DNA of 62,674 nucleotides, the filler included, from Nitrospirae bacterium CG2_30_53_67 (lineage in GTDB: Bacteria > CG2-30-53-67), in the NCBI GenBank assembly GCA_001873285.1. It is 5 parts of 5 records of this genome, joined end to end, with 100 filler letters (N's around TTAATTAATTAA, not from the genome) between each part and the next. Parts side by side here need not be neighbours in the genome. Positions count along the whole stretch, not along the records: positions 1 to 18,055 come from MNYV01000025.1; 4 more parts are not named here. One strand, 5' to 3'. Of the stretch, positions 4,591 to 62,457 are shown one piece after another; position 1 is the stretch's first letter; each line of letters starts with the position of its first letter. Below the pieces are notes generated by a model. The model ran no database searches. It saw nothing but the letters and a program-made list of their open reading frames with translations, and had not been told where the DNA came from. The position numbers were made by a program, and so were the translations under genes.

Positions 4591-4795
4591 GAATCATCTC
4601 CAAAAGAGTGGGTGAAAACATAAGGGTTCAAGGGGTCAAGGATTCCAGGGGTCAAGTGAAGTGCTTTTTAAAAACTCAAGGGTCCGAGGGGTCAAGGGGC
4701 TTAGGGTCCAAGTGAAAAGCATAGAAAAAAACTGAAGGGCAACAGAAATCAAAAAACCACTTGAACCCTTGAACCCTTGAACCCTATAACCCTAT
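4591..4795 (+). mobile_element. MITE family A (octamer-repeat element), copy 1, right end missing
   Basis: Begins GAATCATCTCCAAAAGAGTGGGTGAAAAC, then GGGGTCAA/GGGTTCAA units and reverse-complement TTGAACCC units. Confidence 0.75.
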
Positions 4796-4821
4796 CTTGT
4801 ATTTTAAAGAAATGGTTCCGA

Positions 4822-5625: not shown

Positions 5626-5819
5626 AGATCATCTCCAAAAGAGTGGGTGAAAAAGAAGGGGTCAAGGGGCCAAGGATTCAAGGGGTCGAGTGAAGTGCTA
5701 AAAACATCAGCGGTCAAGGGGTCCAGTGTTTTTCTCTGGAGATTTTGCTTGCGTTTAAGTATTTCACTTGAACCCTGGAATCCTCGACCCCTTTTTACCC
5801 ACTAAATGGGAGAAGAACC
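5626..5819 (+). mobile_element. MITE family A copy 2
   Basis: Ends AGATCATCTCC ... GGAGAAGAACC (imperfect TIR); starts immediately after the cdaA stop codon. Confidence 0.8.
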
Positions 5820-5852
5820 ATAATTAAAAAAGGGATCAGCGGAGTGAAAGGC

Positions 5853-6773
5853 ATGAGGCGCTTTAAGGATATATTGATCAAGGATTTGTGGATCAAGGCA
5901 TTCTCCATTATTTTTGCTTTTTTCCTCTGGTTTTCCATCGTCGGGGGAGAAAGCGCTGAGGAGTTTTTTACCATCCCGCTGACCATTGTGAAAATCCCAG
6001 AGAATATGATCATCAAAAACGAACTGGTTGATTTCGTGAATTTGCGGGTGCGCGGGCAGAAGGCCGTGCTCAACTCGCTGAATGCCAAACAGATCACCGT
6101 GGAACTCAACCTCAAGGATGCAAAAGAGGGTGAAAACGTCATCACCCTCTTTCCGGAAGAAGTCAAACTCCCTGAAGGGCTCTCCGTTGTAAGGATCAGT
6201 CCTTCACAGGTCACGGTCGAGCTGAGCAAACTTGCCGAGAAAGCGCTCCCGGTGGAACCCGATTTCTTCGGGACCGCAGCCAAAGGCTACGAGATCGGGA
6301 GGGTTACGGCCACGCCGCTCAAGGTAGAGGTGATGGGGCTGAAGGAGGCGCTCAAGGATCAGGAAAAGATCAAGACCGCGCGTATAGATCTCTTCGGAAA
6401 GAACCGGTCTTTTTCCGTGGAGGCGGACCTGAAGCCCCCCAGTGGAAATGTCTATATCAAAGGGCCCAAAAAGGTCCAGGTTGACGTGGAGATCCTGGAA
6501 AAGTCAGGCCGGCGTGAATTCCGGAATATACCGGTGAAGGGGTCCGGCCCTTCGGACGGGGCGGTTTTTCATCCGGATAAGGTGACACTGGTCATCGCCG
6601 GGCCGGAGGCCAAACTTACGGATATGCTCCCTTCGATGATCGAGGTCGTGATCCAGGAGCCGGAGACACCGGGCGCCTTTGATCTGGAACCGGAGGTGAC
6701 CTTGCCCGAGGGGTTTCAGGTGATCCGGATCAGTCCTGAAAAAATACGGGTCAAGGTGGAGAAGCATTCCTGA
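5853..6773 (+). CDS. cdaR: YbbR-domain regulator CdaR
   Basis: N-terminal TM, repeated beta-rich YbbR-like domains (..P..V.V.G..); lies between cdaA and glmM. Confidence 0.88.
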   Translation: MRRFKDILIKDLWIKAFSIIFAFFLWFSIVGGESAEEFFTIPLTIVKIPENMIIKNELVDFVNLRVRGQKAVLNSLNAKQITVELNLKDAKEGENVITLFPEEVKLPEGLSVVRISPSQVTVELSKLAEKALPVEPDFFGTAAKGYEIGRVTATPLKVEVMGLKEALKDQEKIKTARIDLFGKNRSFSVEADLKPPSGNVYIKGPKKVQVDVEILEKSGRREFRNIPVKGSGPSDGAVFHPDKVTLVIAGPEAKLTDMLPSMIEVVIQEPETPGAFDLEPEVTLPEGFQVIRISPEKIRVKVEKHS

Positions 6774-6810
6774 ACCGTTCTATATATACAGAGCCTCATA
6801 AACCAACAAC

Positions 6811-6942
6811 GTCATTCCCCGGCCCCCGATCGCAGTCGAGGGCAGGCTTGATCGGGGAATCCATGGTTCGACAAGCTCACCATGACAATTGTCACCCTGA
6901 GCCTGTCGAAGGGTGGATTGTCCGGTCGAGCCGGACAATGAC
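6811..6942. repeat. Nested REP-like palindromes
   Basis: GTCATTCCCC...GACAATGAC outer unit with inner TTCGACAAGCTCA...TGAGCCTGTCGAA hairpin; related GTCATTCCC units near 30990 and 62307. Confidence 0.7.
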
Positions 6943-6985
6943 AAACTGATTAACCTCTGTCACTGTGTATAAAGGAGGGTCAATC

Positions 6986-8347
6986 TTGGGCAAGTTGTTT
7001 GGAACCGACGGCGTCCGGGGTGTTGCCAACGTCTACCCCATGAACGTGGAAATGGCGATCAAGCTCGGGAGGGCGGCTTCACATATTTTCAAGAAGGCGC
7101 GCTCCGGCCGGCACAAGGTCATCATAGGCAAGGATACGAGACTTTCGGGATACATGCTGGAGAGCGCCCTCATGTCAGGAATCTGCTCCATGGGCGTGGA
7201 CGTCCTGCTGGTCGGTCCCCTCCCCACGCCGGCCATTGCCTTCATGACTAAAAATCTCCGGGCGGACGCGGGTGTGGTGATCTCCGCCTCGCACAACCCC
7301 TATCAGGACAACGGGATCAAGTTTTTCTCTCCCGATGGGTACAAACTCCCGGATGAAATAGAAGAGGAGATGGAGTCTCTTATTTTTTCCAATGATATTG
7401 ATTCCATCCGGCCCACGGCCGAGGAGGTGGGAAAGGCCTTTCGGATTGATGACGCGGAGGGCCGCTATGTTTCTTACATCAAAACAAGCTTCCCCAAGGA
7501 GTATGACCTCTCCGGGATCAAGATCGTGATTGACTGTGCCAACGGCGCGGCGTACAAGGCCGCCCCGCTGGTCATGCAGGAACTCGGCGCCGATATCGTC
7601 GTCTTGAATAACCGGCCCGACGGATGCAACATTAACAAGGACTGCGGGTCGCTCCATCCTGATGTGATCATAAAGGCCGTTCTGGACCATGGCGCCGATA
7701 TCGGCATCTCCCTGGACGGAGATGCAGACCGCGTGATCTTTTCGGATGAAAAGGGGAGTGAGGTCAACGGCGACCCCGTGATGGTCTTCTCCGCCCTGGA
7801 CATGAAAAGCCGAGGGGTCCTGCGTGAGAATACCCTGGTGACCACGGTGATGAGCAACATGGGGTTGGAACTGGCGCTGAAAAAACAGGGGATACGGGTC
7901 GTCCGGACGCAGGTCGGAGACCGGTATGTGGCCGAGGAGATGATCCGGGGAGGATATAATCTGGGCGGGGAGCAATCCGGTCATATTCTATTTATGGACT
8001 ACAATACCACGGGAGACGGGATCCTGTCGGCCCTGCAGGTCCTTTCCATCATGAGGAGGTCCGGAAAGAGTCTCTCCGAACTCGCTTCGGTCATGACCAC
8101 GCTTCCGCAGATCCTCAAGAACGTCAGGGTCAGGGAGAAAAAGGATTTTGAAAGCCTGCCGGACGTCAAGAAGGCCATCCATTCCGCAGAGCAGAAACTT
8201 AAAGAGGAGGGGAGGGTTCTGGTCAGGTATTCAGGCACTGAAAACAAGGCCAGGGTCATGATCGAAGGACCGGATTCGGATTCGATCCGGGATATGGCCG
8301 AAAGCATAGCGGGAGAGATCGAGAAGGCGATTGGTGTTAAAAATTAA
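6986..8347 (+). CDS. glmM: Phosphoglucosamine mutase
   Basis: FGTDGVRG, phosphoserine motif ISASHNP, DGDADR, GEQSGH, RYSGTE; TTG start after AAGGAGG. Confidence 0.97.
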
Positions 8348-8554
8348 AGATTATCTCCAGAAGAGTAGGTGAAAACATCAGGGGTCAAGGGGTCAAGGAT
8401 TCCAGGGGTCAAGTGAAGTGCTTTTCAAGAAATTGAGGGTCCGAGGGGTCAAGGATTCAAGTGAAATACAGAAAAGCAAGCAAAGTCTCCAGAGAGAAAC
8501 ACTGGACCCCTTGAACCCTTGAACCCTTTTTATCCACTATATGGGAGAAGAAAC
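8348..8554 (+). mobile_element. MITE family A copy 3 (inverted core)
   Basis: AGATTATCTCC ... GGAGAAGAAAC; flanks AAAATTAA/AAAATTGG (6/8 TSD); starts immediately after the glmM stop codon. Confidence 0.8.
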
Positions 8555-8607
8555 AAAATTGGGATTTCGATATTCGGATTTCAGCCTATTTTAGAAAGGG
8601 GTTTCTT

Positions 8608-9321
8608 GTGACACGACTGGGAGTGAACATTGATCACGTGGCCACGATCCGTCAGGCCAGGCTGACCACGGAACCGGATCCGGTTGCGGCCGCGCTCATT
8701 GCCGAGCTGGCCGGAGCAGACGGCATTACCATCCACCTGAGAGAGGACCGCAGGCATATCCAGGACCGTGATTTAAGTTTGATCCGTCGTGTGATTCATG
8801 TCCGACTGAACCTGGAAATGGCGGCAACCGAGGAGATCATCCGGATCGCACTGAAGGAGAGACCGGATGCGGTCTGTCTCGTTCCTGAAAAGAGGGCGGA
8901 ACTCACGACTGAAGGCGGACTGGATGTGGCGGCCCATGGGAAGTCCCTGAAGCAAGGGATCCGGAGGCTGAGGCATAAGGGGATCGAGGTCAGCATCTTC
9001 GTGGATCCCGATCCCAGACAGGTGATCGCCTCAAAGGAGTTGAACGCTGATGCCGTGGAGATCCATACCGGCGCCTATGCGGAGGCCAAAGGCAAGGCGC
9101 AGGCCCGGGAACTGGAGCGTATCCATCGGGCCGTGCAGACTGCCCGTGAGATCGGGATCAGCATCCATGCAGGGCACGGGCTGACCTACCGGAACGTCAG
9201 CCGGATCGCCGCCATACCGGAGATCGAGGAGCTGAACATCGGACACAGCATCATATCCAGGGCGGTGCTGGTAGGGCTGGAACGGGCTGTCAGGGAAATG
9301 AAGGCGCTGGTGAACCCTTGA
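8608..9321 (+). CDS. pdxJ: Pyridoxine 5'-phosphate synthase
   Basis: [36 protein letters not shown]. Confidence 0.97.
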
Positions 9322-9355
9322 ACCCTTTGTCAACTTAATTGACGATGAGCCGAGT

Positions 9356-10918
9356 ATGAAGGTCGCGAATGCTGAACAGATGAAGAGACTGGACCGGGAG
9401 GCCGTCAGGGAGTACAGGATCCCCGGAATCGTGCTTATGGAGAACGCCTCGCTGGGGGTGATCCGTTCCATGGAGACGAAATACGGCCGGCTTTGGGGGA
9501 GGTCCGTGCTGATCTTCTGCGGCAAGGGGAACAACGGCGGGGACGGGATGGCCTCGGCCAGACACCTTGCAAACCGAGGGGCGCACGTCCAGGTGGTTCT
9601 CTTGGGAGAACCTGAGAGCCTCCAGGAAGACGCAGCAGCCAATTACGCCATCTGCGAACGCATGAAGATCCGAATCCATCCGGTGGTCTCTCCAAAAGAT
9701 TTTTCTTCGGTTTCACGCTGGATCAGTAAGGCCGATCTTATCCTGGATGCGATCCTGGGAACCGGGATCGTCCCGCCGGTCCGCGGGCTGGTGGAACAGG
9801 CAGTACGCCGGATCAACCGGTCCGGTAAACCGGTGATCTCCGTGGACCTCCCCACAGGCTTGAGTGCGGACTCTTCTGAAATCGTCGGGGAGGTGGTTCA
9901 TGCGGATTTGACTGTCACCTTCGGTCTTCCCAAAATATCCCTGGTCCAGTATCCCTCATTGTCGAATGCCGGAGAGGTCCACGTGGCGGACATCAGCCTT
10001 CCTTGGGAACTCGTGGACCAGGCTGAGATCCCAGTGGAACTTCTCGGTGAGGAGATTCTGCAGGCCCTTCCGCCGAGGAGGCCCGATCTTCACAAGGGGG
10101 AAGCAGGCCGGGTCCTTCTGATCGCAGGATCCAGGGGAATGCCTGGAGCGGCGGTAATGGCCGCCCTATCCTGTTTCAGGTCCGGCGCCGGACTGGTCTA
10201 TGCCGCCGTGCCCGGGCGGGTGCGGGAGTTTTTTCATAAACAGTTGGTAGAGGGGATCACCGTCACCCTTCCGGAAACCGAGCGGGATCATCTGAGCCTC
10301 TCCGCTCTGCCGGATATCCTCGCTGCGGCCCGGGGGAAAAAGGCGGCGGTGATGGGGCCCGGAATCGGCCTTGACCCGGCAACGGGCGATATGGTACGAT
10401 CCCTCATTCAAAAGATCCGCATCCCCATGATTCTGGACGCCGACGCCCTCAGCCATCTGGCCGGGAATACGGCCCTACTCAGGAAAATCAGGATCCCGGT
10501 GATCCTGACCCCGCATCCCGGGGAGATGGCCAGGCTGACAGACGTCTCGGACAAGGTTTTAAAGACGCGCCGCGTGGATCTGGCCCGGGAATTCGCCGCG
10601 GCGTTTGGGGTGATTCTGGTTTTAAAAGGGGCCAGGACCGTGATTGCGGATCCCAAGGGCCGGGTCTGGATCAATCCAACGGGAAATCCGGGCATGGCCA
10701 CGGCCGGGACCGGGGACGTGCTCACGGGGATGATCGCCGGGCTTGCGGCCCAAGGGATGGCGCCTCTGCAGGCTGCGCTGGCCGGTGTTTTTCTGCACGG
10801 GCGCTGCGGGGACCGAGCCGCCGCACACCGGGGTAAACGAGGACTTCTTGCCAGAGACCTGATCCGTGAGATACCGAATGTCTTGAGGACCGTTGATGAC
10901 AAGAAAAGGACCCGATGA
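9356..10918 (+). CDS. nnr: Bifunctional NAD(P)H-hydrate epimerase/dehydratase
   Basis: YjeF_N motif CGKGNNGGDG; C-terminal HKGEAG, LTPHPGE, AGTGDVL. Confidence 0.95.
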   Translation: MKVANAEQMKRLDREAVREYRIPGIVLMENASLGVIRSMETKYGRLWGRSVLIFCGKGNNGGDGMASARHLANRGAHVQVVLLGEPESLQEDAAANYAICERMKIRIHPVVSPKDFSSVSRWISKADLILDAILGTGIVPPVRGLVEQAVRRINRSGKPVISVDLPTGLSADSSEIVGEVVHADLTVTFGLPKISLVQYPSLSNAGEVHVADISLPWELVDQAEIPVELLGEEILQALPPRRPDLHKGEAGRVLLIAGSRGMPGAAVMAALSCFRSGAGLVYAAVPGRVREFFHKQLVEGITVTLPETERDHLSLSALPDILAAARGKKAAVMGPGIGLDPATGDMVRSLIQKIRIPMILDADALSHLAGNTALLRKIRIPVILTPHPGEMARLTDVSDKVLKTRRVDLAREFAAAFGVILVLKGARTVIADPKGRVWINPTGNPGMATAGTGDVLTGMIAGLAAQGMAPLQAALAGVFLHGRCGDRAAAHRGKRGLLARDLIREIPNVLRTVDDKKRTR

Positions 10919-10997
10919 AACCACAGAGTGCACAGAGAAACAGTCTGTGTTCTGTGGTCAGGTTTTAATAAACGTTCAACCAGAAAAGGAGGAAAAC

Positions 10998-11184
10998 ATG
11001 AAAAGGATTCTTGCTTGCGCAGTCTTTTTAACTCTACGGGTCGGCCGCGCTCTCTTATTATCCGATGAAGAATCTTGGGATTTCGGCCGGATACCGGATG
11101 ATCCGCCTGGATGTGTCCGAGGATGGAGACAGTGCATTTCTTAAACTGGGCGGTCCGACCCTGTCTGCGACTCTTCGATTCTAA
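10998..11184 (+). pseudogene. Internally deleted outer-membrane beta-barrel gene
   Basis: AAGGAGG RBS and signal-like MKRILACAVFLTL, joined out of frame to AALSYYPMKNLGISAGYRMIRLDV...LGGPTLSATLRF* (two terminal beta-strands ending in Phe). Confidence 0.65.
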
Positions 11185-11240
11185 AGAAGCTTATGAATGA
11201 TTTGATGGATGTTTATTTTAAAGAAAAGAGGTGAGGAACA

Positions 11241-11690
11241 TTGCTTGCAGCCAAAGATCTGATGACCCGGGACGTGATCACCGTGGGGCCCGACATGCCG
11301 GTCAAGGAACTGGCCAATCTGTTGGTCGAGCGCCATATCAGCGGCGCCCCCGTGGTTGACCGGGAGGGGGCGCTGGTCGGGATCATTACCGAGAAGGATC
11401 TGATCGAGAGTAATAAAAACATTCACATCCCGACTGTGGTGACCCTCTTTGACGCGGTGATCTATCTTGAAAGCGAAAAACACTTCAAGCAAGAGCTGAA
11501 AAAGATGGCCGCTTCCAAGGTGGAGGATATCATGGTCCGGAAGGTGGTCACCATCGGAGAAGAGACCTCCATCCGTGAGATTGCCGCGATCATGTCGGAA
11601 CGGGGCAAGGGTCTGCTTCCCGTGGTCCGGGATGGGAAGCTGGTCGGGATTGTGGGCAAGGCCGATATCGTCCGGTCCATGGCCGGATAA
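11241..11690 (+). CDS. CBS-domain pair protein
   Basis: Two CBS repeats (DLMTRDVITV..SGAPVVD..GIITEKD; LPVVRDGKLVGIV). Confidence 0.9.
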   Translation: MLAAKDLMTRDVITVGPDMPVKELANLLVERHISGAPVVDREGALVGIITEKDLIESNKNIHIPTVVTLFDAVIYLESEKHFKQELKKMAASKVEDIMVRKVVTIGEETSIREIAAIMSERGKGLLPVVRDGKLVGIVGKADIVRSMAG

Positions 11691-11710
11691 ACAAAGATCC
11701 CTCTCGGTGC

Positions 11711-11745
11711 GTCACCCTATTGATGAACAGGACCACTTAGGCGGA
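11711..11745. repeat. MITE family B end; perfect 35-bp inverted repeat of 12860-12894
   Basis: GTCACCCTATTGATGAACAGGACCACTTAGGCGGA. Confidence 0.8.
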
Positions 11746-11768
11746 AACCATTTCAGGGCGACAGGAGA

Positions 11769-12278
11769 ATGTCTGCCGGATTCATGATGCAAGCGGTTCT
11801 GCGTTCGTCTTCCGAGGAGGAGACTCTTTTGATCGGAGAACGCCTCGGCGGGCGCCTGGCCGGAGGCGATATCCTTGCCCTTGCAGGGAGGCTTGGCGCA
11901 GGAAAGACCGTTCTGGCCAAAGGGATCGCCAGGGGGCTCGGGATCAGGGAAGAGGACGTTGTGAGCCCCACCTATATGCTGATTCATGAAATTTCAGGGG
12001 CCGTGAAGCTCTTTCACGTGGACCTGTACCGTGTAACCGATATGGACGACCTGGAGAATGCCGGGTTCTACGACGTCTTCGATCAAGATGCCGTGACCGT
12101 CATTGAATGGGCTGACCGCTTTCCGGGCGCGGTCTCCGAACCGTATTTGATGATCAGGCTGCAATGCGTGGACGAGAATATCAGGGAGATCTTCATAGAG
12201 CCTCATGGGGAGAGGTTCAGGCGTCTTCTAAACCTCTTGGTGAAAGAAATTCCGTCTCACCTGATCTACAGGACATGA
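11769..12278 (+). CDS. tsaE: tRNA threonylcarbamoyladenosine biosynthesis ATPase TsaE
   Basis: GRLGAGKT, VVSPTY, HVDLYR, VIEW. Confidence 0.95.
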   Translation: MSAGFMMQAVLRSSSEEETLLIGERLGGRLAGGDILALAGRLGAGKTVLAKGIARGLGIREEDVVSPTYMLIHEISGAVKLFHVDLYRVTDMDDLENAGFYDVFDQDAVTVIEWADRFPGAVSEPYLMIRLQCVDENIREIFIEPHGERFRRLLNLLVKEIPSHLIYRT

Positions 12279-12311
12279 GGGCGCGGGCCTCTTCCGGGAA
12301 AGGTATGGGGT

Positions 12312-12590
12312 ATGCTGTCGGAAGATGAGATCAGAAGTCTCTCAAAGGAGATGAGAAGAGTCCTCTCTGACGTCCGGGGTCTGGAGTTCCTCCGGCCTGT
12401 TGAAGAGATCGAGGAGAAGATCTCCTCTGTTCTTTCGCAGAACATGCAGGAGGAAATCAAGCTCAATGCCGAATGTGACAAGATCATGGATCAATATGCC
12501 GGGCAGATCGAGCGGGGGGATGCGGATCCTCACAAATTGTTTTCAATGATCAAGCGGAAACTGGCCCGGGAGAAGGGGGTTGTACTTTGA
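12312..12590 (+). CDS. DUF507-family protein
   Basis: Helical, C-terminal KLFSMIKRKLAREKGVVL; paired with a second DUF507-like ORF. Confidence 0.7.
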   Translation: MLSEDEIRSLSKEMRRVLSDVRGLEFLRPVEEIEEKISSVLSQNMQEEIKLNAECDKIMDQYAGQIERGDADPHKLFSMIKRKLAREKGVVL

Positions 12591-12868
12591 AACTCTCGGA
12601 AGACCGTATCTCACACCTTTCACACCTGATTTTGGATCAGATCCTGGAGCAGGGGCTGATCTTCATGAAGGAGGATGATGAACCTGCCGCACGGGCGGAA
12701 ATCAGGAAAGTTTTTGTAACCGAACTCCAGAAGGAAGAAGCGCTCGACCAAAAAATCCGGAACAAGATCGTTTCCTACAAGAGGACGATCCCTGAAGGGA
12801 GCAATGAATGGCATATCCTTTATCAACGCTTCCAGCGGGAAGAGAAGACCCGGAAGGGATCCGCCTAA
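12587..12868 (+). CDS. DUF507-family protein
   Basis: MKLSEDRISHLSH...IPEGSNEW.ILYQR pattern. Confidence 0.75.
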   Translation: MKLSEDRISHLSHLILDQILEQGLIFMKEDDEPAARAEIRKVFVTELQKEEALDQKIRNKIVSYKRTIPEGSNEWHILYQRFQREEKTRKGSA

Positions 12869-12985
12869 GTGGTCCTGTTCATCAATAGGGTGACTCACCG
12901 ACCTGCCTGCCGTCAGGCAGGATCGTAGTGCGGTCTTATCTCCGCGCTCGGCGGAGCGCATACCCCATGTGGTACGCCGCAGGGA
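12869..12985 (+). mobile_element. MITE family B, truncated copy
   Basis: TAA|GTGGTCCTGTTCATCAATA at the DUF507 stop codon; interior resembles the 56087 copy (GGTACGCCGCA); contains palindrome CCTGCCTGCCGTCAGGCAGG. Confidence 0.65.
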
Positions 12986-13003
12986 TTGGTTCTCCAACGG
13001 GGC

Positions 13004-13555
13004 TTACTTCACGGAATTTTTCTTGTTATAGCCGACCAGGGCGATGGCGAACCGGTCGTCCTGGAAAGGATGCATGTCGGGGAAACGCTCAAAAAGCCAG
13101 CCGTTGAAGATTTCATTCCCTTCTTTCAGGACCGTCACCTTCAAGGCCGGATTCTTGGTCTCGTTTGAGAGGGACGTAATGGCATTCTGGTCCATGGAGA
13201 ACTGGGGCAGGAAGTCTCCGGCCTTGATGATCAGGCTGCTTCCCGGAATCGGGTAATCCGTATGCAGGGGAATCGTCTGATCCACGCTGGTCTTTTGGGT
13301 CTTATCCTCGATCCGGATGACCGCGGATTCCCACTGGCCTGCAACGCCTTCAGGCACGGAAACGGTCTTGGGGGTCTGGGATGGCGTGCCTTGATGCATG
13401 GGCATGGCCGGTTGTTGAGGGAGATCGGCTGAAGGTTGTGCCTGAGTTTGCGTCTGCGGCTGCGGCGGGGCCGCCGTCTTTTTCTGTTCACAAGCCGTGA
13501 AAGTAATCAAAGGAATTGAAACAAGGACCATTAAAAACCACGCAGATCGTTTCAT
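13004..13555 (-). CDS. Putative lipoprotein (DUF2155-like C-terminal domain)
   Basis: Signal peptide ending FTAC, Pro/Gln linker, then NPALKV..IFNGWLFERFP.MH. Confidence 0.65.
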   Translation of the reverse strand: MKRSAWFLMVLVSIPLITFTACEQKKTAAPPQPQTQTQAQPSADLPQQPAMPMHQGTPSQTPKTVSVPEGVAGQWESAVIRIEDKTQKTSVDQTIPLHTDYPIPGSSLIIKAGDFLPQFSMDQNAITSLSNETKNPALKVTVLKEGNEIFNGWLFERFPDMHPFQDDRFAIALVGYNKKNSVK

Positions 13556-13611
13556 TGTTCTTCTCCTAAAAATGAAAGACGGAACCGTGCCTTTGGGCAC
13601 AATAAAAATGA

Positions 13612-14448
13612 ATGAAAACATTAATATATGGAAATGATAAAGTCAATATTTTTATTCCTCTGATTTTTGCGGGGATTTTATCTCTTTCACAGGGGTGCGC
13701 CGGTCTCAGACCCGCTCCCGGCTATGGTGAAGATGATTTCATGACCCATCCGGTCCTCGGGCTGCCCGTGACCATACGTTACCTTCCGGCGGATGCGCCC
13801 ATTCTCCCCCTTCTTGAGGAGACAATCCGTTCCGGCATGGAGAAGGCCGGGCAGTGGGGCGAGATCCGGACTCCCTTTACAGTGACCGTCTATCCGGACC
13901 ACGAGGCCTTGGAGAATGTCGTACAAAAAAGAGGGTATGGATGGCTCAAGGCCTGGGCCACGGAAGAGAAGATCTCCCTCCAGTCCCCGCGTTCCTGGAC
14001 GTTGTTCAGGGATCAATATCTCTTTGACCTCATGGCACACGAGTTGACCCATGTGATCCACTATCAGACCGCAGGAATCCAGGCCGGCCGTTCAGCGGAA
14101 AACGATCCCTTCTGGTTCAGGGAAGGGTTGGCGTCCGTGACCGCCGGGCAGGGGTACCGAAGGTATGGGAGGAAGGCGCTGCGGAGATTATTGCGGTCGG
14201 ACCCGAAGTTTGATCCCTTCTCTCCGTCAGAGAGGGATATCCGGGACCATGAGAAGCTGGTTTATTCATCAGCTCATTATCTGACGGTCTATCTGATCGA
14301 AACCTATGGTTCCGATCGGATCAGGGACCTCCTTCACAGGATCGCACTCGGGGATTCCTTTGAGACTGCCTTTGACAAGACCTATCCCGTTTCTTTAAAA
14401 CGGCTGAGGTCGGAATGGGAACCATGGCTGGAGATGAACGAACCTTAG
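13612..14448 (+). CDS. Peptidase MA-like (gluzincin) lipoprotein
   Basis: Lipobox-like SQGC, AHELTH followed by WFREGLA. Confidence 0.8.
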   Translation: MKTLIYGNDKVNIFIPLIFAGILSLSQGCAGLRPAPGYGEDDFMTHPVLGLPVTIRYLPADAPILPLLEETIRSGMEKAGQWGEIRTPFTVTVYPDHEALENVVQKRGYGWLKAWATEEKISLQSPRSWTLFRDQYLFDLMAHELTHVIHYQTAGIQAGRSAENDPFWFREGLASVTAGQGYRRYGRKALRRLLRSDPKFDPFSPSERDIRDHEKLVYSSAHYLTVYLIETYGSDRIRDLLHRIALGDSFETAFDKTYPVSLKRLRSEWEPWLEMNEP

Positions 14449-14610
14449 TGGTCCTATTCGTAAATACGGTCGCATTCGATTGCCGTAGGGCGGCCTCCTC
14501 GGCGTTCCGCTCCTTGCGACGTACCGCAGGGGGTACGCCTCAGTCGCGCGCCTTGATGAGTCCGCCCTACGGCACTCTCGGTACGTTACCATACTTACGA
14601 ACAGGACCAC
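14448..14610. mobile_element. MITE family B, full copy, 3-bp TSD TTA
   Basis: TTA|GTGGTCCTATTCGTAAATA ... TACTTACGAACAGGACCAC|TTA; closely related inverted copy at 56087-56247. Confidence 0.88.
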
Positions 14611-14689
14611 TTAGGTTTATATTCGCTCGCTAATCCAGCCCCCAAGGGGCGGGGAATGCACTCGCTATACTTTTTCAGTTATGAAATTA

Positions 14690-14960
14690 GTATTATCTCC
14701 AAAAGAGCGGGTGAAAACATAAGGGGTCAAGGGGTCAAGGATTCCAGGGGTCAAGTGAAGTGCTTTTCAAGAAATTGAGGGTCCGAGGGGTCAAGGGGTC
14801 AAGGATTCAAGTGAAATACAGAAAAGCAAGCAAAGTCTCCAGAGAGAAACACTGGACCCCTTGAACCCTTGAACCCTTGAACCCTTGAACCCTTGACTCC
14901 TGTGACCCTATGGTTCTTCAACCCTCGACCCCTTTTTACCCGCTAAATGGGAGAAGGACC
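14690..14960 (+). mobile_element. MITE family A copy 4 (inverted core), 8-bp TSD TGAAATTA
   Basis: TGAAATTA at both 14682-14689 and 14961-14968; ends GTATTATCTCC / GGAGAAGGACC. Confidence 0.88.
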
Positions 14961-14989
14961 TGAAATTATTGATAAGGAAGACAGTACAC

Positions 14990-18055: not shown

Positions 18056-18155
18056 NNNNNNNNNNNNNNNNNNNNNNNNNNNNNNNNNNNNNNNNNNNNT
18101 TAATTAATTAANNNNNNNNNNNNNNNNNNNNNNNNNNNNNNNNNNNNNNNNNNNN
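18056..18155. other. Assembly linker (N run with TTAATTAATTAA)
   Basis: Identical 100-nt spacer occurs four times; stops in all frames. Confidence 0.97.
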
Positions 18156-19170: not shown

Positions 19171-19380
19171 AAGACCGTTCCTATTATTAGAAATGACATC
19201 ATATTGGAAATCCCTCCCTCGATAAACCCATTCGAGGGCAGGCGCCGGGAGGAATTTCATCTTCCCTTCCTTTGTAAGGAGGGGAATGGGTTTATGGCTC
19301 GTTGAGCCAACGGCTCATAGAGGAGGTAGACTTCCCTGGCTCTACCCCACCTATCCTCCCCTTACAAAGGGGAGGCGAAT
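19171..19380. repeat. Repeat family C with palindromic cargo
   Basis: TAGAAA(T/C)GACATCAT...CGATAAACC(C/T)ATTCGAG shared with 33157-33236 and 40856-41007; CCTTCCTTTGTAAGGAGGG-type hairpins. Confidence 0.7.
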
Positions 19381-29054: not shown

Positions 29055-29154
29055 NNNNNNNNNNNNNNNNNNNNNNNNNNNNNNNNNNNNNNNNNNNNTT
29101 AATTAATTAANNNNNNNNNNNNNNNNNNNNNNNNNNNNNNNNNNNNNNNNNNNN
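29055..29154. other. Assembly linker
   Basis: N run with TTAATTAATTAA. Confidence 0.97.
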
Positions 29155-33156: not shown

Positions 33157-33236
33157 TAAGGGTCTCGAAATAGAAACGACATCATATCGAAAATTCCTCC
33201 CCTCTACGAGCCGTCGGCCGATAAACCTATTCGAGA
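33157..33236. repeat. Repeat family C, partial copy
   Basis: TAAGGGTCTCGAAATAGAAACGACATCAT...CGATAAACCTATTCGAG. Confidence 0.65.
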
Positions 33237-37732: not shown

Positions 37733-37891
37733 GGTTCTTCTCCTCTACGAGCCATCGGCCATTTAGTGGGTAAAAAGGGTTTGAGGGTTCAAGGGTTCAA
37801 GTGAAATACTGAAACGTAAGCAAAATCTCCAGAGAAAAACACTGGAACCCTTGACCCCTGATGTTCTCACCCACTCTTTTGGAAATGATCC
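37733..37891 (-). mobile_element. MITE family A copy 5
   Basis: GGTTCTTCTCC ... GGAAATGATCC; flanks TCTTTTTT/TCTTTTCT (7/8 TSD). Confidence 0.8.
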
Positions 37892-40855: not shown

Positions 40856-41007
40856 TAAGGTTCTCATAATAGAAACGACATCATGTAGAAAATCCTTCCC
40901 CCGATAAACCCATTCGAGGGCAGGCTCTAACCTCCCTTTGCCCCTTCGACTGCGCTCAGGGCAGGCGCCGGGGAGGCATTTCCCCCTCTTTGGAAAAGAG
41001 GGGGAAG
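40856..41007. repeat. Repeat family C copy with nested palindromes
   Basis: TAAGGTTCTCATAATAGAAACGACATCAT..CGATAAACCCATTCGAGGGCAGGC..TCCCCCTCTTTGGAAAAGAGGGGGAA. Confidence 0.7.
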
Positions 41008-41229: not shown

Positions 41230-41329
41230 NNNNNNNNNNNNNNNNNNNNNNNNNNNNNNNNNNNNNNNNNNNNTTAATTAATTAANNNNNNNNNNNNNNN
41301 NNNNNNNNNNNNNNNNNNNNNNNNNNNNN
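41230..41329. other. Assembly linker
   Basis: N run with TTAATTAATTAA. Confidence 0.97.
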
Positions 41330-41419: not shown

Positions 41420-41638
41420 GGTTCTTCTCCCATTTAGTGGGTAAAAAGGGTTCGAGGATTCCAGGGTTCAAGGGGTCAAGTGAAATACTTAAACGCAAGC
41501 AAAATCTCCAGAGAAAAACACTGGAATCCTTGAACCCTAGGACCCTCGGCCCCTTATGTTCTTAGCACCTCACTTGACCCCTGGAATCCTGGACCCCTTG
41601 ACCCCTGATGTTTTCACCCACTCTTTTGGAGATGATCC
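41420..41638 (-). mobile_element. MITE family A copy 6
   Basis: GGTTCTTCTCCCATTTAGTGGG ... CTTTTGGAGATGATCC; 4 bp downstream of the cca stop codon. Confidence 0.82.
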
Positions 41639-44430: not shown

Positions 44431-44505
44431 GCCGCTGTAGCTCAATGGTAGAGCAACTGATCCGTAATCAGTAGGTTGGAGGTTCAATCCCTCTCAGCGG
44501 CTCCA
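44431..44505 (+). tRNA. tRNA-Thr(CGT)
   Basis: Acceptor GCCGCTG/CAGCGGC with TCCA, D arm GCTC/GAGC, anticodon arm ACTGA-TCCGTAA-TCAGT, T loop TTCAATC. Confidence 0.93.
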
Positions 44506-51920: not shown

Positions 51921-52020
51921 NNNNNNNNNNNNNNNNNNNNNNNNNNNNNNNNNNNNNNNNNNNNTTAATTAATTAANNNNNNNNNNNNNNNNNNNNNNNN
52001 NNNNNNNNNNNNNNNNNNNN
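51921..52020. other. Assembly linker
   Basis: N run with TTAATTAATTAA. Confidence 0.97.
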
Positions 52021-55026: not shown

Positions 55027-56040
55027 ATGAAAGCCGAGATATTTAAAAAAGAGATACAGCAAGGGAGGATTCCTCCTGTCTGTCTGCTGTACGGTGAAGA
55101 GACGCTCCTGATTCGGGAGATGATCGACCTGATCCGCAATAAGCTCTCCAGGGGCGGCGATCCGTCCATGGGGCATGAGGTCTTCTACGGCGCCGAGTCC
55201 GATGCATCCGCCATCATGCAATCAGCCGGGACCGTTCCGCTTTTCGGAGGGACGAAACTGGTGATTGTCAAAGAGATGGACCGGATGCCCGATTCCGAGA
55301 AGGAGCGTTTTCTAAAATACATCAAGGATCCGGTACGCGAAACCTGCCTGGTCATGACGTGCGCCAAGCCGGATATGCGTAAGAGATTTTTTGCTCAGAT
55401 CCAGAAGCAATGGCCCTCGATCCGGTTTTATCATCCCTACGATGAAGAACAAACCGGGAAATGGATCCGTTCGTTTCTCAGACAGCAAGGATACAGGATC
55501 GAAGACGAAGCGGTTCATTTTCTAATGGATGCCCACGGACGAGAACTTCAGGTCCTGAAGAACGAACTTCAAAAGCTGATGCTCTATAAGGGGACGCCGG
55601 GTGAGATCGCGCTCTCTGACGTGACCGAGGTTTCAGGACATTCACGTGAATTCAATTCCTTTGAACTTGCGGATGCCGCCTGTGACAAGGATCTCGAAAA
55701 GGCCCTTAAGATCTTATCGCGGCTGGTTGAAGATGGGACGCCTCCGCTCCTGATCCTTTCGGCCTTGGCATCAAAGTTTCGGAAGATCTGGATGGGAAAA
55801 GAGCTTGAAAAGCAAGGCCTCACGGAACACGAAATCCTGCGGCGCCTGAATATCCGATTTCAAGAAAAAAGGTTTTTAAGGCAATTGCATGGTTTTCAGG
55901 AGGAAGAAATCGCCCGCCACTATCTGCAAATCGCTTCCCTCGATGAATCGATTAAATCCGGAAGCGGCCGGCATCAGATCTGGATCGAGACGATGATCCA
56001 TCACATCTGCAGGCGGCCGGCTGATGTATCCTGTTCGTAA
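55027..56040 (+). CDS. holA: DNA polymerase III delta subunit
   Basis: LLYGEETLL, PLFG..LVIV, NELQKL..Y, FELADA; adjacent to rpsT. Confidence 0.92.
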   Translation: MKAEIFKKEIQQGRIPPVCLLYGEETLLIREMIDLIRNKLSRGGDPSMGHEVFYGAESDASAIMQSAGTVPLFGGTKLVIVKEMDRMPDSEKERFLKYIKDPVRETCLVMTCAKPDMRKRFFAQIQKQWPSIRFYHPYDEEQTGKWIRSFLRQQGYRIEDEAVHFLMDAHGRELQVLKNELQKLMLYKGTPGEIALSDVTEVSGHSREFNSFELADAACDKDLEKALKILSRLVEDGTPPLLILSALASKFRKIWMGKELEKQGLTEHEILRRLNIRFQEKRFLRQLHGFQEEEIARHYLQIASLDESIKSGSGRHQIWIETMIHHICRRPADVSCS

Positions 56041-56086
56041 ATAGGGTGAAACACCAGCCGCGCCGTCAGTCAGATCGGGCCGCTAA

Positions 56087-56247
56087 GTGGTCCTATTCGT
56101 AAATATGGTAACGTACCGAGAGGGGCGTAGGGCGGTCTTGTCAAGGCGCGCGACTGAGGCGTACCCTCTGGTACGCCGCAAGGAGCGGAACGCAGATGAG
56201 GCCGCCCTACGGCACTCGAATGCGACCGTATTTACGAATCGGGCCGC
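56087..56247. mobile_element. MITE family B, full copy, 3-bp TSD TAA
   Basis: TAA|GTGGTCCTATTCGTAAATA ... TATTTACGAATCGGGCCGC|TAA; preceded by a degraded tandem copy at ~56027-56083. Confidence 0.88.
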
Positions 56248-56519
56248 TAAGACTGGGAGGCGAGCTGGTTCACCTTTTTCGTGAGAGCGGACTTTTTTCT
56301 GGCGGCGTTATTCTTGTGGATAATACCCTTGGTTACGGACTTATCCAAAATACGGAGCGCCCCGGGAAGGGAGGTCTTGGCCCCTTCGATATCCTTTTCA
56401 GTGATTAAAGACTCAACCTTCTTGACCTGTGTTTTCATTCTGGAACGGTGCTGTTTATTTAGAAGGGCCCGTTTACTGCTTTGTCTCATCCGTTTGATTG
56501 CTGATGCATGATTCGCCAA
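56247..56519 (-). CDS. rpsT: 30S ribosomal protein S20
   Basis: ANHASAIKRMRQ..KGIIHKNNAARKKS; TTG start after GGAGG. Confidence 0.96.
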   Translation of the reverse strand: MANHASAIKRMRQSSKRALLNKQHRSRMKTQVKKVESLITEKDIEGAKTSLPGALRILDKSVTKGIIHKNNAARKKSALTKKVNQLASQS

Positions 56520-57391: not shown

Positions 57392-57417
57392 AGCAAATAC
57401 TTGAACGGAACATTTGA

Positions 57418-57595
57418 TCTCCCTGCCTTGCAAGTGATGGCCGGCAGTGTTTTGAGCCAACACTTATTTGAATGGGAACCGGCCCTGAAGACGGTGTGCA
57501 TGCCCTCTTGAGAGGGAAGCCTGAAGTCTTTATCACGGTACCCACCTGGGTTATCAGGTTCAAATAGTTGCGGCCACACGGCAAGGCGGGGGGGT
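57418..57595 (+). ncRNA. ssrS: 6S RNA
   Basis: Closing stem CCCTGCCTTGC/GCAAGGCGGGG, TTGAGCC..GGTTCAA and GGGAACC..GGTACCC pairings; canonical position after zapA; ends approximate. Confidence 0.88.
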
Positions 57596-58208
57596 TATAT
57601 ATATAGATCATATTGAGATGATATAAACCGAGTTGCTTATCCATAAGACATCCCAACGACTGATTCAGGGAGGAAAAAGGAATTTTAAATGCAGCGCAGG
57701 AGAATAAAGGGAGCAGGAAAACCTCAATGAAAGCGTTTAGTCTCGTACATGATGAGTTTCACCGGCTTGTAAAATTAAATAAAGCGGTCCATCCATATGG
57801 TTCTTTAAAAGTGGGGGGAAAACTCCTGGTTGAACTTCATCAGGTTTCGCAGTTCCCGTTGAAGAAACCTGCAGGCGATCGGTGATGATGACGCTCATGT
57901 TACAAGGCTGAACCGGTGAAGGTCATGAAGAAATGTTCACTTTGTCCCTATTTTTTGGTTGGGACGGCTTTTTATCTCGAAAAAACAACGAAGCCCCGGA
58001 ATAAAAGGACTTAGGTCCTCCTTTTTACTGACCGGTCTGATCGTTGTCCGATCTTCTTCCTTTGTTTCCCATCCTGTGTGCAAACCATCATCGCAGACGA
58101 ATTGAGGTTTGAGAACCCCTTGGGGGCCGGATCGGCTTTAGTTTATTCCGTAAGAGGATCAAAGTCCCTTTTGGAGTCAGGATTTTTCCCCAGGTTTGAG
58201 GTGACGTC

Positions 58209-61132: not shown

Positions 61133-61166
61133 ATTTGTTAAACGGTTTAACCGTTAAACAAATTTA

Positions 61167-61420
61167 GGATCATCTCCAAAAAAGTGGATGAAAACATCAG
61201 GGGTCAAGGGGTCAAGGATTCCAGGGGTCAAGAGAAGTGCTAAAAACATAAAGGGTCGAGGATTATAGGGTTCAAGGGTTCCAGTGTTTTTCTCTGAAGA
61301 TTTTGCTTGCGTTCTTGTACTCGGTTTACCGGTATCAGTATTTCACTTGAACCCTTGACCCCTCGGCCCCTGGAACCCTATGGATCTTCAACCCTCGAAC
61401 CCTTTTTACCCACTGGAACC
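61167..61420 (+). mobile_element. MITE family A copy 7, 8-bp TSD CAAATTTA
   Basis: CAAATTTA at both 61159-61166 and 61421-61428; GGATCATCTCC left end, shortened right end. Confidence 0.88.
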
Positions 61421-61467
61421 CAAATTTATTCCCCATAATGGGGGAGGGATTATCAGGAAGTTTCCCA

Positions 61468-62247
61468 ATGAAGATCCTTTTTCTCGGCGATATTATCGGT
61501 AAGCCCGGCAGGCAGGCGGCGGCGCGTTCACTTCCGAAACTGATCACCCGGTTCGGAGTCGATCTCTGCGCGGCGAATGGCGAGAACGCCGCCGCAGGCT
61601 TCGGGCTGACACCGAAGGTTTTCGAGGAGCTCAAGGCCATGGAGATCCAGGTCCTGACCTCAGGGAACCATATCTGGAACAAAAAGGAGGTCTACCCGCT
61701 TTTGGATGAACAGAAGAATATTCTCAGGCCGGCCAATTATCCTCCCGGTGTTCCAGGCCGGGGGAGCTGCGTGGTTTCCACGGCTTCGGGCGAGAAGGTC
61801 GCGTTCCTGAACCTGATGGGAAGGGTTTTCATGAACCCGCTTGACTGCCCCTTCCGGTGCGCGGAGGCCGAGGTGGAGAGGCTCCGGCATGAGACGCCGG
61901 TCATCATCGTTGACTTCCATGCCGAGGCCACATCCGAAAAGATCGCCATGGGATGGTTCTTAAACGGCAAGGTCAGCGCCGTCCTGGGGACCCATACCCA
62001 TGTGCAGACCGCGGATGAGACGATCCTTCCCGGCGGGACCGCCTATATCACCGACGTGGGGATGACCGGTCCGAGAGACTCGGTCATCGGCGTCAAAAAA
62101 GAGATTATCATTGAAAAGTACCTCTACCAGATTCCTCAGCGGTTCGACACCGCGAACGGACCCACGCTCCTCTGCGGGGTCCTCCTGGACCTGGATGCCG
62201 GCACAGGGAAGGCAAACCATATCCTGCGTCTTAGACTGGAAGACTAA
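61468..62247 (+). CDS. ymdB: YmdB-family metallophosphoesterase
   Basis: GDIIGKPGR, NGENAA, SGNH, DFHAEATSEK, GTHTHV; follows rny. Confidence 0.93.
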   Translation: MKILFLGDIIGKPGRQAAARSLPKLITRFGVDLCAANGENAAAGFGLTPKVFEELKAMEIQVLTSGNHIWNKKEVYPLLDEQKNILRPANYPPGVPGRGSCVVSTASGEKVAFLNLMGRVFMNPLDCPFRCAEAEVERLRHETPVIIVDFHAEATSEKIAMGWFLNGKVSAVLGTHTHVQTADETILPGGTAYITDVGMTGPRDSVIGVKKEIIIEKYLYQIPQRFDTANGPTLLCGVLLDLDAGTGKANHILRLRLED

Positions 62248-62457
62248 GTGGTCCTGTTCATAAATATGGTGAAGTATTGGCGGCCTTTTAGCCCTCTTTA
62301 TTTTATGTCATTCCCGAGGGTTTAATCGGGAATATGGTTGTTTTGTATGAATAGGTGCTTTCAATTTACGGGTTTTAACGCAAACCAGATCCCCGATAGA
62401 GACATTCGGGGATGACGAATAATAATATTACGTCATCGTATTTATGAATTTGTGTAC
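62248..62457. mobile_element. MITE family B variant with REP-like cargo, TSD TAA
   Basis: TAA|GTGGTCCTGTTCATAAATA ... TATTTATGAATTTGTGTAC|TAA; interior GTCATTCCCG..CGGGAAT and ATCCCCGA..TCGGGGATGAC. Confidence 0.72.

Follow-up and report, generated by a model that had tools for sequence, protein, structure and literature searches.

The 48-nt core of a family of short transposable elements in Nitrospirae bacterium CG2_30_53_67 occurs in two opposite orientations between constant outer ends, and it is likely that this reflects rare, repeat-mediated inversion of the loop in a palindromic MITE (a transposable element of the miniature inverted-repeat class), a mutational accident and not a programmed switch. 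Seven copies (c1 to c7, Table 1) lie in the window, the stretch of 62,674 bases analyzed here, which consists of five contigs (C135-C139) from the 2.37-Mb, 183-contig draft genome of this bacterium (G000, 95% complete). As these contigs are separate and are joined by artificial linkers (N runs around TTAATTAATTAA at 18056-18155, 29055-29154, 41230-41329 and 51921-52020), distances and relative orientations across the linkers are meaningless. The host has been found in aquifer and groundwater metagenomes according to a public run listing. A genome of the same genus (G001) and four other genomes of the same bacterial family (G004, G006, G007 and G008) were used for comparison, and both G000 and G001 are draft metagenome assemblies.

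Each element is built of a left end (GGATCATCTCCAAAAGAGTGGGTG.., consensus ..GGATCATCTCCAAAAGAGTGGGTGAAAACAT), forward octamers of the GGGGTCAA type, an asymmetric centre, reverse octamers, and a different right end (..ACCCACTAAATGGGAGAAGAACC, consensus ..CCCTTTTTACCCACTAAATGGGAGAAGAACC). The two ends are imperfect inverted repeats of each other and can be distinguished, so that the orientation of what lies between them can be scored. Every copy is nearly palindromic, the arrays of forward GGGGTCAAG-type octamers on the left pairing with the reverse arrays on the right. In the window the octamer pattern has 49 matches against 7.6 expected (about 6-fold), a number reached in 0 of 100 shuffles. 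The core is bounded by the inverted hexamers C[C/A]AGTG and CACT[T/G]G, which are continuous with the arrays. Folding of the single-stranded DNA predicts long hairpins, the paired arrays forming the stem and the core the apex, with -35.6 kcal/mol (z -4.97) for c3 and -21 kcal/mol (z -2.56) for c5.

Orientation of the core within and between genomes

Relative to the ends, the core reads CCAGTG..CACTTG (here called forward) in c2, c5, c6, and c7, and its reverse complement CAAGTG..CACTGG (inverted) in c3 and c4, just as the first-pass annotation of the window had described; in c7 it is a 69-nt long variant with 23 nt in place of 2 nt. Profile searches of G000 found 123 left and 114 right ends, which pair up into 74 complete elements of 88-444 nt, orphan ends being located mostly at contig ends. 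The core is forward in 52 of the complete elements and inverted in two, namely c3 and c4; the remaining 20 have another core or none. When all 98 core matches in G000 were scored with end and left-arm markers, 84 were forward, eight mixed, four inverted (c3, c4, C56:1941, and C102:358), and two unassigned. At C56:1941 an inverted left end lies to the right of the core, and at C102:358 a weak inverted right end lies to its left. Six of the mixed cores were taken as forward in spite of weak contrary matches, C28 and C178 after inspection by eye and the remaining four on the basis of their E-values; the other two are a fold-back artefact (C7) and an element with right-type ends on both sides (C155). 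By eye, the unassigned cores are forward (C61:13171) and inverted relative to a decayed right end (C74:9610), so that about 5 of the 98 cores are inverted in total. A family end or left-arm marker lies within 330 nt of 96 of the cores, and the other two have decayed ends by eye. At C7:6480-6880 and C50:6900-7300 a left end is present on both sides; a reading of these loci as arm-to-arm recombinants was rejected, as their mirror-image flanks mark them as fold-back contigs seeded by the hairpin.

c3 and c4 have the same core sequence, which departs from the consensus at four positions; three of these substitutions are private, that is, absent in all other full-length cores. Each copy's left arm has the other's among its two best matches, together with that of the forward copy C60:11024, and the copies occupy different sites with different target duplications. 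These similarities indicate that c3 and c4 are one lineage and that the flipped form was copied by transposition, since identical private core variants combined with separate target duplications place the flip before at least one transposition.

The core pattern has 22 matches in G001 and, with up to 3 mismatches allowed, none in G004, G006, G007, or G008. Of the G001 matches, 20 were fetched: 16 of these read forward (13 cleanly and 3 despite weak contrary matches), two are inverted (L033 and L044), and two are not orientable. Eight orthologous loci have a core in both genomes, with both flanks on one G000 contig; six are concordant and two discordant (L044 versus C178 and L037 versus C74), and in the discordant pairs decayed end junctions are common to both genomes. 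C178 and L044 share a truncated right-end junction (CCCTTTTTACC then TCCT.TTAACCTGAGG) and a left-arm remnant (GGGTCATAGGG), and between these shared remains of the arms the core, at one and the same position, reads forward in G000 but inverted in G001. In the case of C74 and L037, a decayed inverted right end is found at the same junction in both genomes; L037 has the standard arrangement with extra modules and C74 is a shorter element with its core inverted relative to that end. The private substitutions of c3 and c4 are absent from C56:1941, C74:9610, and C102:358 in G000 and from L033 and L044 in G001, and judged by this difference the flips recur, with at least four independent events counted. 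At the G001 orthologue of the c3 site (L014:2150-2330) there is a different AT-rich palindromic repeat (..GATCAAAATGACAG....TGTCATTTTGAT..), so that the same intergenic spot holds c3 in G000 and another hairpin element in G001 and no core comparison is possible there.

Population data for the c3 locus came from 23 public runs, all in the form of contigs, which break inside the repeat and from which rare variants are dropped. An exact 85-89-nt contig comprising array, core, and array was present in four runs at about twice the depth of the flanks, which is consistent with two copies (c3 and c4). In the runs X1, X3, and X20 the contig of the right flank starts 7 nt within the core and crosses the right arm to reach unique sequence, by which the orientation is fixed as inverted; the corresponding contig of X2 starts 3 nt beyond the core, and thus the orientation of c3 is set in the contigs of three of the four runs (2015 and 2017). 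Two metagenome contigs (L048 and L049; 22 and 30 kb) contain the c3 locus, both in the same orientation. No mixed orientation at this locus was seen in the contigs of the four runs or in the two metagenome contigs, which represent the major form only. A joint of opposite strands in X3 (8421/8519) was rejected as a sign of mixed orientation, the piece having 12 other letters and being another forward copy.

Explanations for the two orientations

In the course of events that we favor, an element carrying a PF05635 gene would have given rise, by internal deletion, to a palindromic MITE with the core at the tip of its hairpin, and the core, bounded by inverted repeats, would occasionally become inverted in place. 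Because the bounding hexamers continue into the arrays, exchange anywhere in the arms would flip the centre without leaving a scar. We infer that this may proceed by intramolecular recombination between the arms or by a template switch during replication of the hairpin or cruciform, and that the flips serve no function. One flipped copy would have stayed competent for transposition and produced c3 and c4; the other flips lie in old, decayed copies. A population variant of c3 (L048:470-770 compared with 8300-8600 of the window) is longer by one octamer in each of its two arrays; this symmetric gain suggests that the two arms were corrected against each other and fits arm-to-arm templating.

Several points weigh against this explanation. 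The flip itself was not observed, the two discordant orthologous loci are known at the level of contigs from draft metagenome assemblies, and the orientation evidence from contigs leaves room for low-frequency flipping in the population. The inversion calls for C56, C74, and C102 rest on decayed or truncated ends, and the match behind the call for C102 is weak (E 0.022). The right arms of c3 and c4, which differ in module content, do not have their closest match in each other; the arms, which appear to evolve through gain and loss of modules, are mosaic and give no clean tree, and for this reason core variants and orthologous loci were used to count inversions instead of an arm tree. The signals for the ancestral orientation are mixed: the long gene-derived interiors described below slightly favor the majority orientation of the core (score 10, reached by 3-6 of 300 shuffles), whereas the orientation in c3 and c4 is collinear with the spacer of c1 and with the shortest gene-derived interior. 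Finally, the ISL3 transposase (PF01610) had no match in the 95%-complete G000, which is weak evidence as genomes of this kind are often assembled without their insertion sequences.

A single ancient inversion, followed by the expansion of two subfamilies with no further flips, had been offered as an alternative in the first-pass annotation. It agrees with the identical cores, the three private substitutions, and the separate target duplications of c3 and c4, with the fact that these two are the only inverted copies among the 74 complete elements, and with the same orientation of c3 in all contigs seen; within the window, indeed, the inverted copies are one lineage, and no mixed orientation was seen in the contigs of the c3 locus. 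As an account of the whole family it is unlikely, as the five other inverted copies in the two genomes lack the private substitutions, and at two orthologous loci whose decayed junctions are shared the core is oriented differently in the two genomes. The annotation had further inferred that the arrays are recombination sites at which a segment is flipped. That the segment was flipped more than once is borne out by two of the eight orthologous loci and by the decayed inverted copies, but an active invertible system is not supported. For a programmed switch, in which a site-specific recombinase would act at the octamer arrays, flip the core reversibly, and cause phase variation of neighboring genes, one may point to the inverted repeats around the core, to the location of copies just upstream of co-directional genes, and to the proposal that inversion of Correia elements affects expression (PMC10969869). 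Yet about 5 of 98 is far from an equilibrium of 1:1, the c3 locus shows one orientation wherever contigs set it, a search of the 95%-complete genome for PF00239 (resolvase/serine invertase), which did not extend to tyrosine recombinases, gave no match, and a simple scan gave no promoter-like site in the core of c2 or c3, all of which makes such a switch highly improbable. Only a slim chance can be given to the idea that the core flips at a low, biologically meaningful rate in living populations and that, since most copies directly precede a co-directional gene, about 100 hairpin 'micro-switches' would thereby affect downstream read-through, RNA processing, or expression, with the PF05635 protein, as the original cargo of the element, perhaps binding the octamer hairpin; the contigs speak against this idea for the major allele at one locus only.

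The two orientations might also be obtained without any inversion if the core were a tiny insertion whose orientation is set by the arm, with forward or reverse octamers, that it entered, each insertion being independent. Elements without a core do exist (C76:19909-20053), and another module ('Z', see below) is found in the left arm or, reverse-complemented, in the right arm while the core is forward. This explanation deserves little credence, as it would require excision and re-entry at the same spot for C178 and L044, whose cores sit in one location, framed by the same remains of the arms, and differ in orientation alone; moreover, no target duplication belongs to the core itself, its terminal hexamers are shared with the array repeat, and among its 98 matches in G000 it was not found outside the family. 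That the assembler took a wrong path through a repeat flanked by inverted repeats is barely conceivable, even though both genomes are draft metagenome assemblies and fold-back artefacts do occur at C7 and C50: the core of c3 and c4 differs from all others at the three private positions and so is not a flipped standard core, independent contigs in X1, X3, and X20 run from the core through the right arm into unique flank, the two separate metagenome contigs have the same structure, and a read is much longer than the flanking arms, whose repeats are imperfect.

ISL3-type ends, gene-derived interiors, and other features of the window

These MITEs are non-autonomous transposons whose terminal inverted repeats are of the ISL3 type and whose target-site duplications measure 8 bp. 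Of the 59 complete elements that could be tested, 14 have the same 8 bp on both sides and 13 others agree at 7 of 8 positions, whereas shuffled pairing leads one to expect 0.35 and 1.05, respectively. An insertion polymorphism was also found: the site at L026 in G001 is filled (flanks AAAAAGGC / AAAAAGGA) and the orthologous G000 site at C106 is empty. The ends, GGATCATCTCCAAAAGAGTGGGTG and, reverse-complemented, GGTTCTTCTCCCATTTAGTGGGTAAAA, show a pattern like that of ISL3-family ends in relatives when compared by eye. In G001 there is a decayed PF01610 gene with an upstream end (GGGTCTTCTCCCAAACGAGTGGGTAGG) that resembles the MITE ends but is only weakly matched by their profile (E 0.011-0.13); a second end of this decayed element was not found. 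G007 possesses a complete 1306-bp ISL3-family element with the repeats GGTTCT..GTGTGGGTAA. The elements themselves contain no transposase gene, and their sole coding remnant is PF05635. Right-type ends are found on both sides at C1:7441-7752 and C155:47770-48105; the interior of the former is unrelated, which indicates that the same ends mobilise other cargo.

An ISL3-derived MITE of 187 nt, with terminal repeats that begin GGCTCTTCG and with 8-nt direct repeats, has been described in Microcystis aeruginosa (PMC11448079). Like it, the present family is non-autonomous, forms a stem-loop, has terminal repeats that match ISL3 (GGCTCTTCG there; GGTTCTTCTCC / GGATCATCTCC here), is flanked by 8-nt direct repeats, and exists in tens of copies. 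Compared with what the passages of that paper on the element describe, the present family differs in its octamer arrays, its modular variable interior, its PF05635 remnants, its core inversions, and in that no ISL3 transposase was found in its own genome.

Local alignment showed that 20 of the 74 complete elements are without the standard core, and their interiors fall into three groups. The first is the c1-type spacer, present in the complete elements C44, C37, and C130 besides c1, and the second is a longer relative of this spacer in C114, C105, and C128. The third is a graded series of six elements (plus the shorter C109:20070) whose interiors translate to N- and C-terminal parts of PF05635, the four-helix-bundle protein of the 23S-rRNA-intervening-sequence type. 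A Pfam search of G000 yielded 12 PF05635 matches, nine of them fragments; MITE ends and arrays flank six of the matches, as read from the flanks, and three more lie inside known elements or at a contig end. The last codons and the stop codon of the gene lie in the reverse octamer array. It is thus probable that the MITEs arose by internal deletion from an element that carried the PF05635 gene. In a literature search for PF05635 together with repeats, nothing on such elements was found. Contigs break within copies that hold longer PF05635 remnants (C140:1-260, C94:1-230, C133:1-240, C167:9800-10102, C78:3550-3853, and C176:8200-8475), and therefore fuller, perhaps intact, gene-bearing elements probably exist unassembled.

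The spacer of c1, which had been called unrelated to the core, recurs in the three other complete elements of the first group and aligns collinearly with the core in its c3/c4 orientation (score 13; shuffle maximum 8-9, 0 of 300 shuffles). Against the majority orientation there is no alignment (score 5, reached by more than 230 of 300 shuffles). By eye, the spacer resembles an internal-deletion version of the C114-type interior. Taken together, this alignment and this likeness argue that the variant interiors came from a single ancestor with the gene, by deletion and by divergence into subfamilies, and not from a swapping of cassettes, and the exchange of cargo proposed in the first-pass annotation gives way to a nested series of deletions from the form that bears the PF05635 gene.

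Further modules were observed in the arms. At least 12 complete elements have module 'Z' (about 72 nt, 106 nt in its long form; hairpin GCCGTCTGCGACGGC) in the left arm, and eight have its reverse complement in the right arm, with up to 98% identity and with the core forward throughout (for example, left arm at C159:2444-2806 and right arm at C94:10559-11002 of G000). This mirror-image placement could be due to orientation-specific insertion into the octamers or to double inversions. At C105:8000-8344 of G000 a small palindrome (CCCCGTTAGAGG..CCTCTAACGGGG) lies within the left-arm module after GTGAA, which is repeated behind the palindrome, as if a mini-insertion were nested there. Within the right-end terminal repeat, c5 (37733-37775), C39:4402-4489, C45:14339-14481, and C1:13758-14067 have an additional stretch, GGCCGATGGCTCGTAGAG; being common to several short copies, this variant of the right end is probably a subfamily marker.

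Table 1. The seven MITE copies of the window, in positions along the whole stretch
Feature	Position	Strand	Description
c1	4591..4800	+	left end, forward arrays, c1-type spacer 4709-4763, reverse arrays; right end missing
c2	5626..5819	+	complete; forward core 5723-5770; flanks match 4/8
c3	8348..8554	+	complete; inverted core 8458-8505; flanking 8-mers AAAATTAA / AAAATTGG (6/8)
c4	14690..14960	+	complete; inverted core 14808-14855; perfect 8-bp duplication TGAAATTA at 14682-14689 and 14961-14968
c5	37733..37891	-	short form (left end, array, core, array, right end); forward core 37798-37845; extra right-end insertion
c6	41420..41638	-	complete; forward core 41477-41524
c7	61167..61420	+	forward long-variant core 61281-61349; right end internally deleted
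c7 target duplication	61159-61166 and 61421-61428		8-bp CAAATTTA

In the end profile search, the left end of c1 is the orphan end at C135:4584-4625. A scan of the window against Rfam at gathering thresholds detected a 6S RNA (57417-57596, 120.9 bits) and one tRNA gene (44431-44502) and no match to the elements. Two further repeat families were noticed in the window. One of them, unrelated to the MITEs and characterized by a CTAAGTGGTCCTGTTC.. motif, has direct and inverted copies at 11701-11741, 12865-12901, 14444-14615, 56021-56251, and 62244-62280, one copy being located directly upstream of c4. The other (TAATAGAAA[C/T]GACATCAT..; 59 nt) is present at 19185-19243, 33168-33226, and 40867-40925, with copies 61% and 88% identical to the reference copy.

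Relation to known inversions and meaning for the family

Switches of the hin, gin, and fimS type depend on a dedicated recombinase and show mixed orientations within a population. The present core is like them in being a segment between inverted repeats with two orientations and differs in that no mixed orientation was seen in the c3 contigs and no PF00239 match was found, tyrosine recombinases not having been searched. A closer likeness is offered by plastid DNA, for which hairpin-associated small inversions of 4-50 bp have been reported (PMC12371153, citing Kelchner and Wendel, 1996). In the non-coding hairpin loops of chloroplasts treated there, as in the 48-nt core, a short segment at the tip of a hairpin lies between inverted repeats in either orientation, and the inversions recur independently between lineages and are mutational, not programmed. 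The features of such mutational events are also present here, the inverted segment being the loop between the stems and recurring at low frequency (about 5 of 98 cores in G000, 2 of 20 in G001). The present case departs from the chloroplast inversions of that account in that a bacterial transposable element in many copies forms the hairpin, arrays of 8-bp units make up its stems, and a flip may be inherited by transposition, as in c3 and c4, or arise in place. Inversion, under antibiotic stress, has also been reported for Correia elements (reviewed in PMC10969869), likewise bacterial MITEs in which an asymmetric interior becomes reoriented in place between the element's own inverted repeats; in that review's description the element inverts relative to its flanks, whereas here only the core does so, the outer ends being constant, and no flipping at the level of populations was seen.

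The event is thus of a known kind in a new setting, and no new recombination system is revealed. What it would mean is that a palindromic bacterial MITE can undergo hairpin-loop inversion of the plastid type and that a flip, once spread by transposition, can give rise to apparent 'subfamilies'. Core orientation would then be a homoplasious character, which matters for the classification of MITEs and for trees built from them, and the fold-back contigs that these elements yield matter for the quality control of assemblies. More intriguing biology lies next to the inversions, in an ISL3-type MITE family whose ancestor probably carried the enigmatic gene PF05635 ('rRNA intervening sequence').

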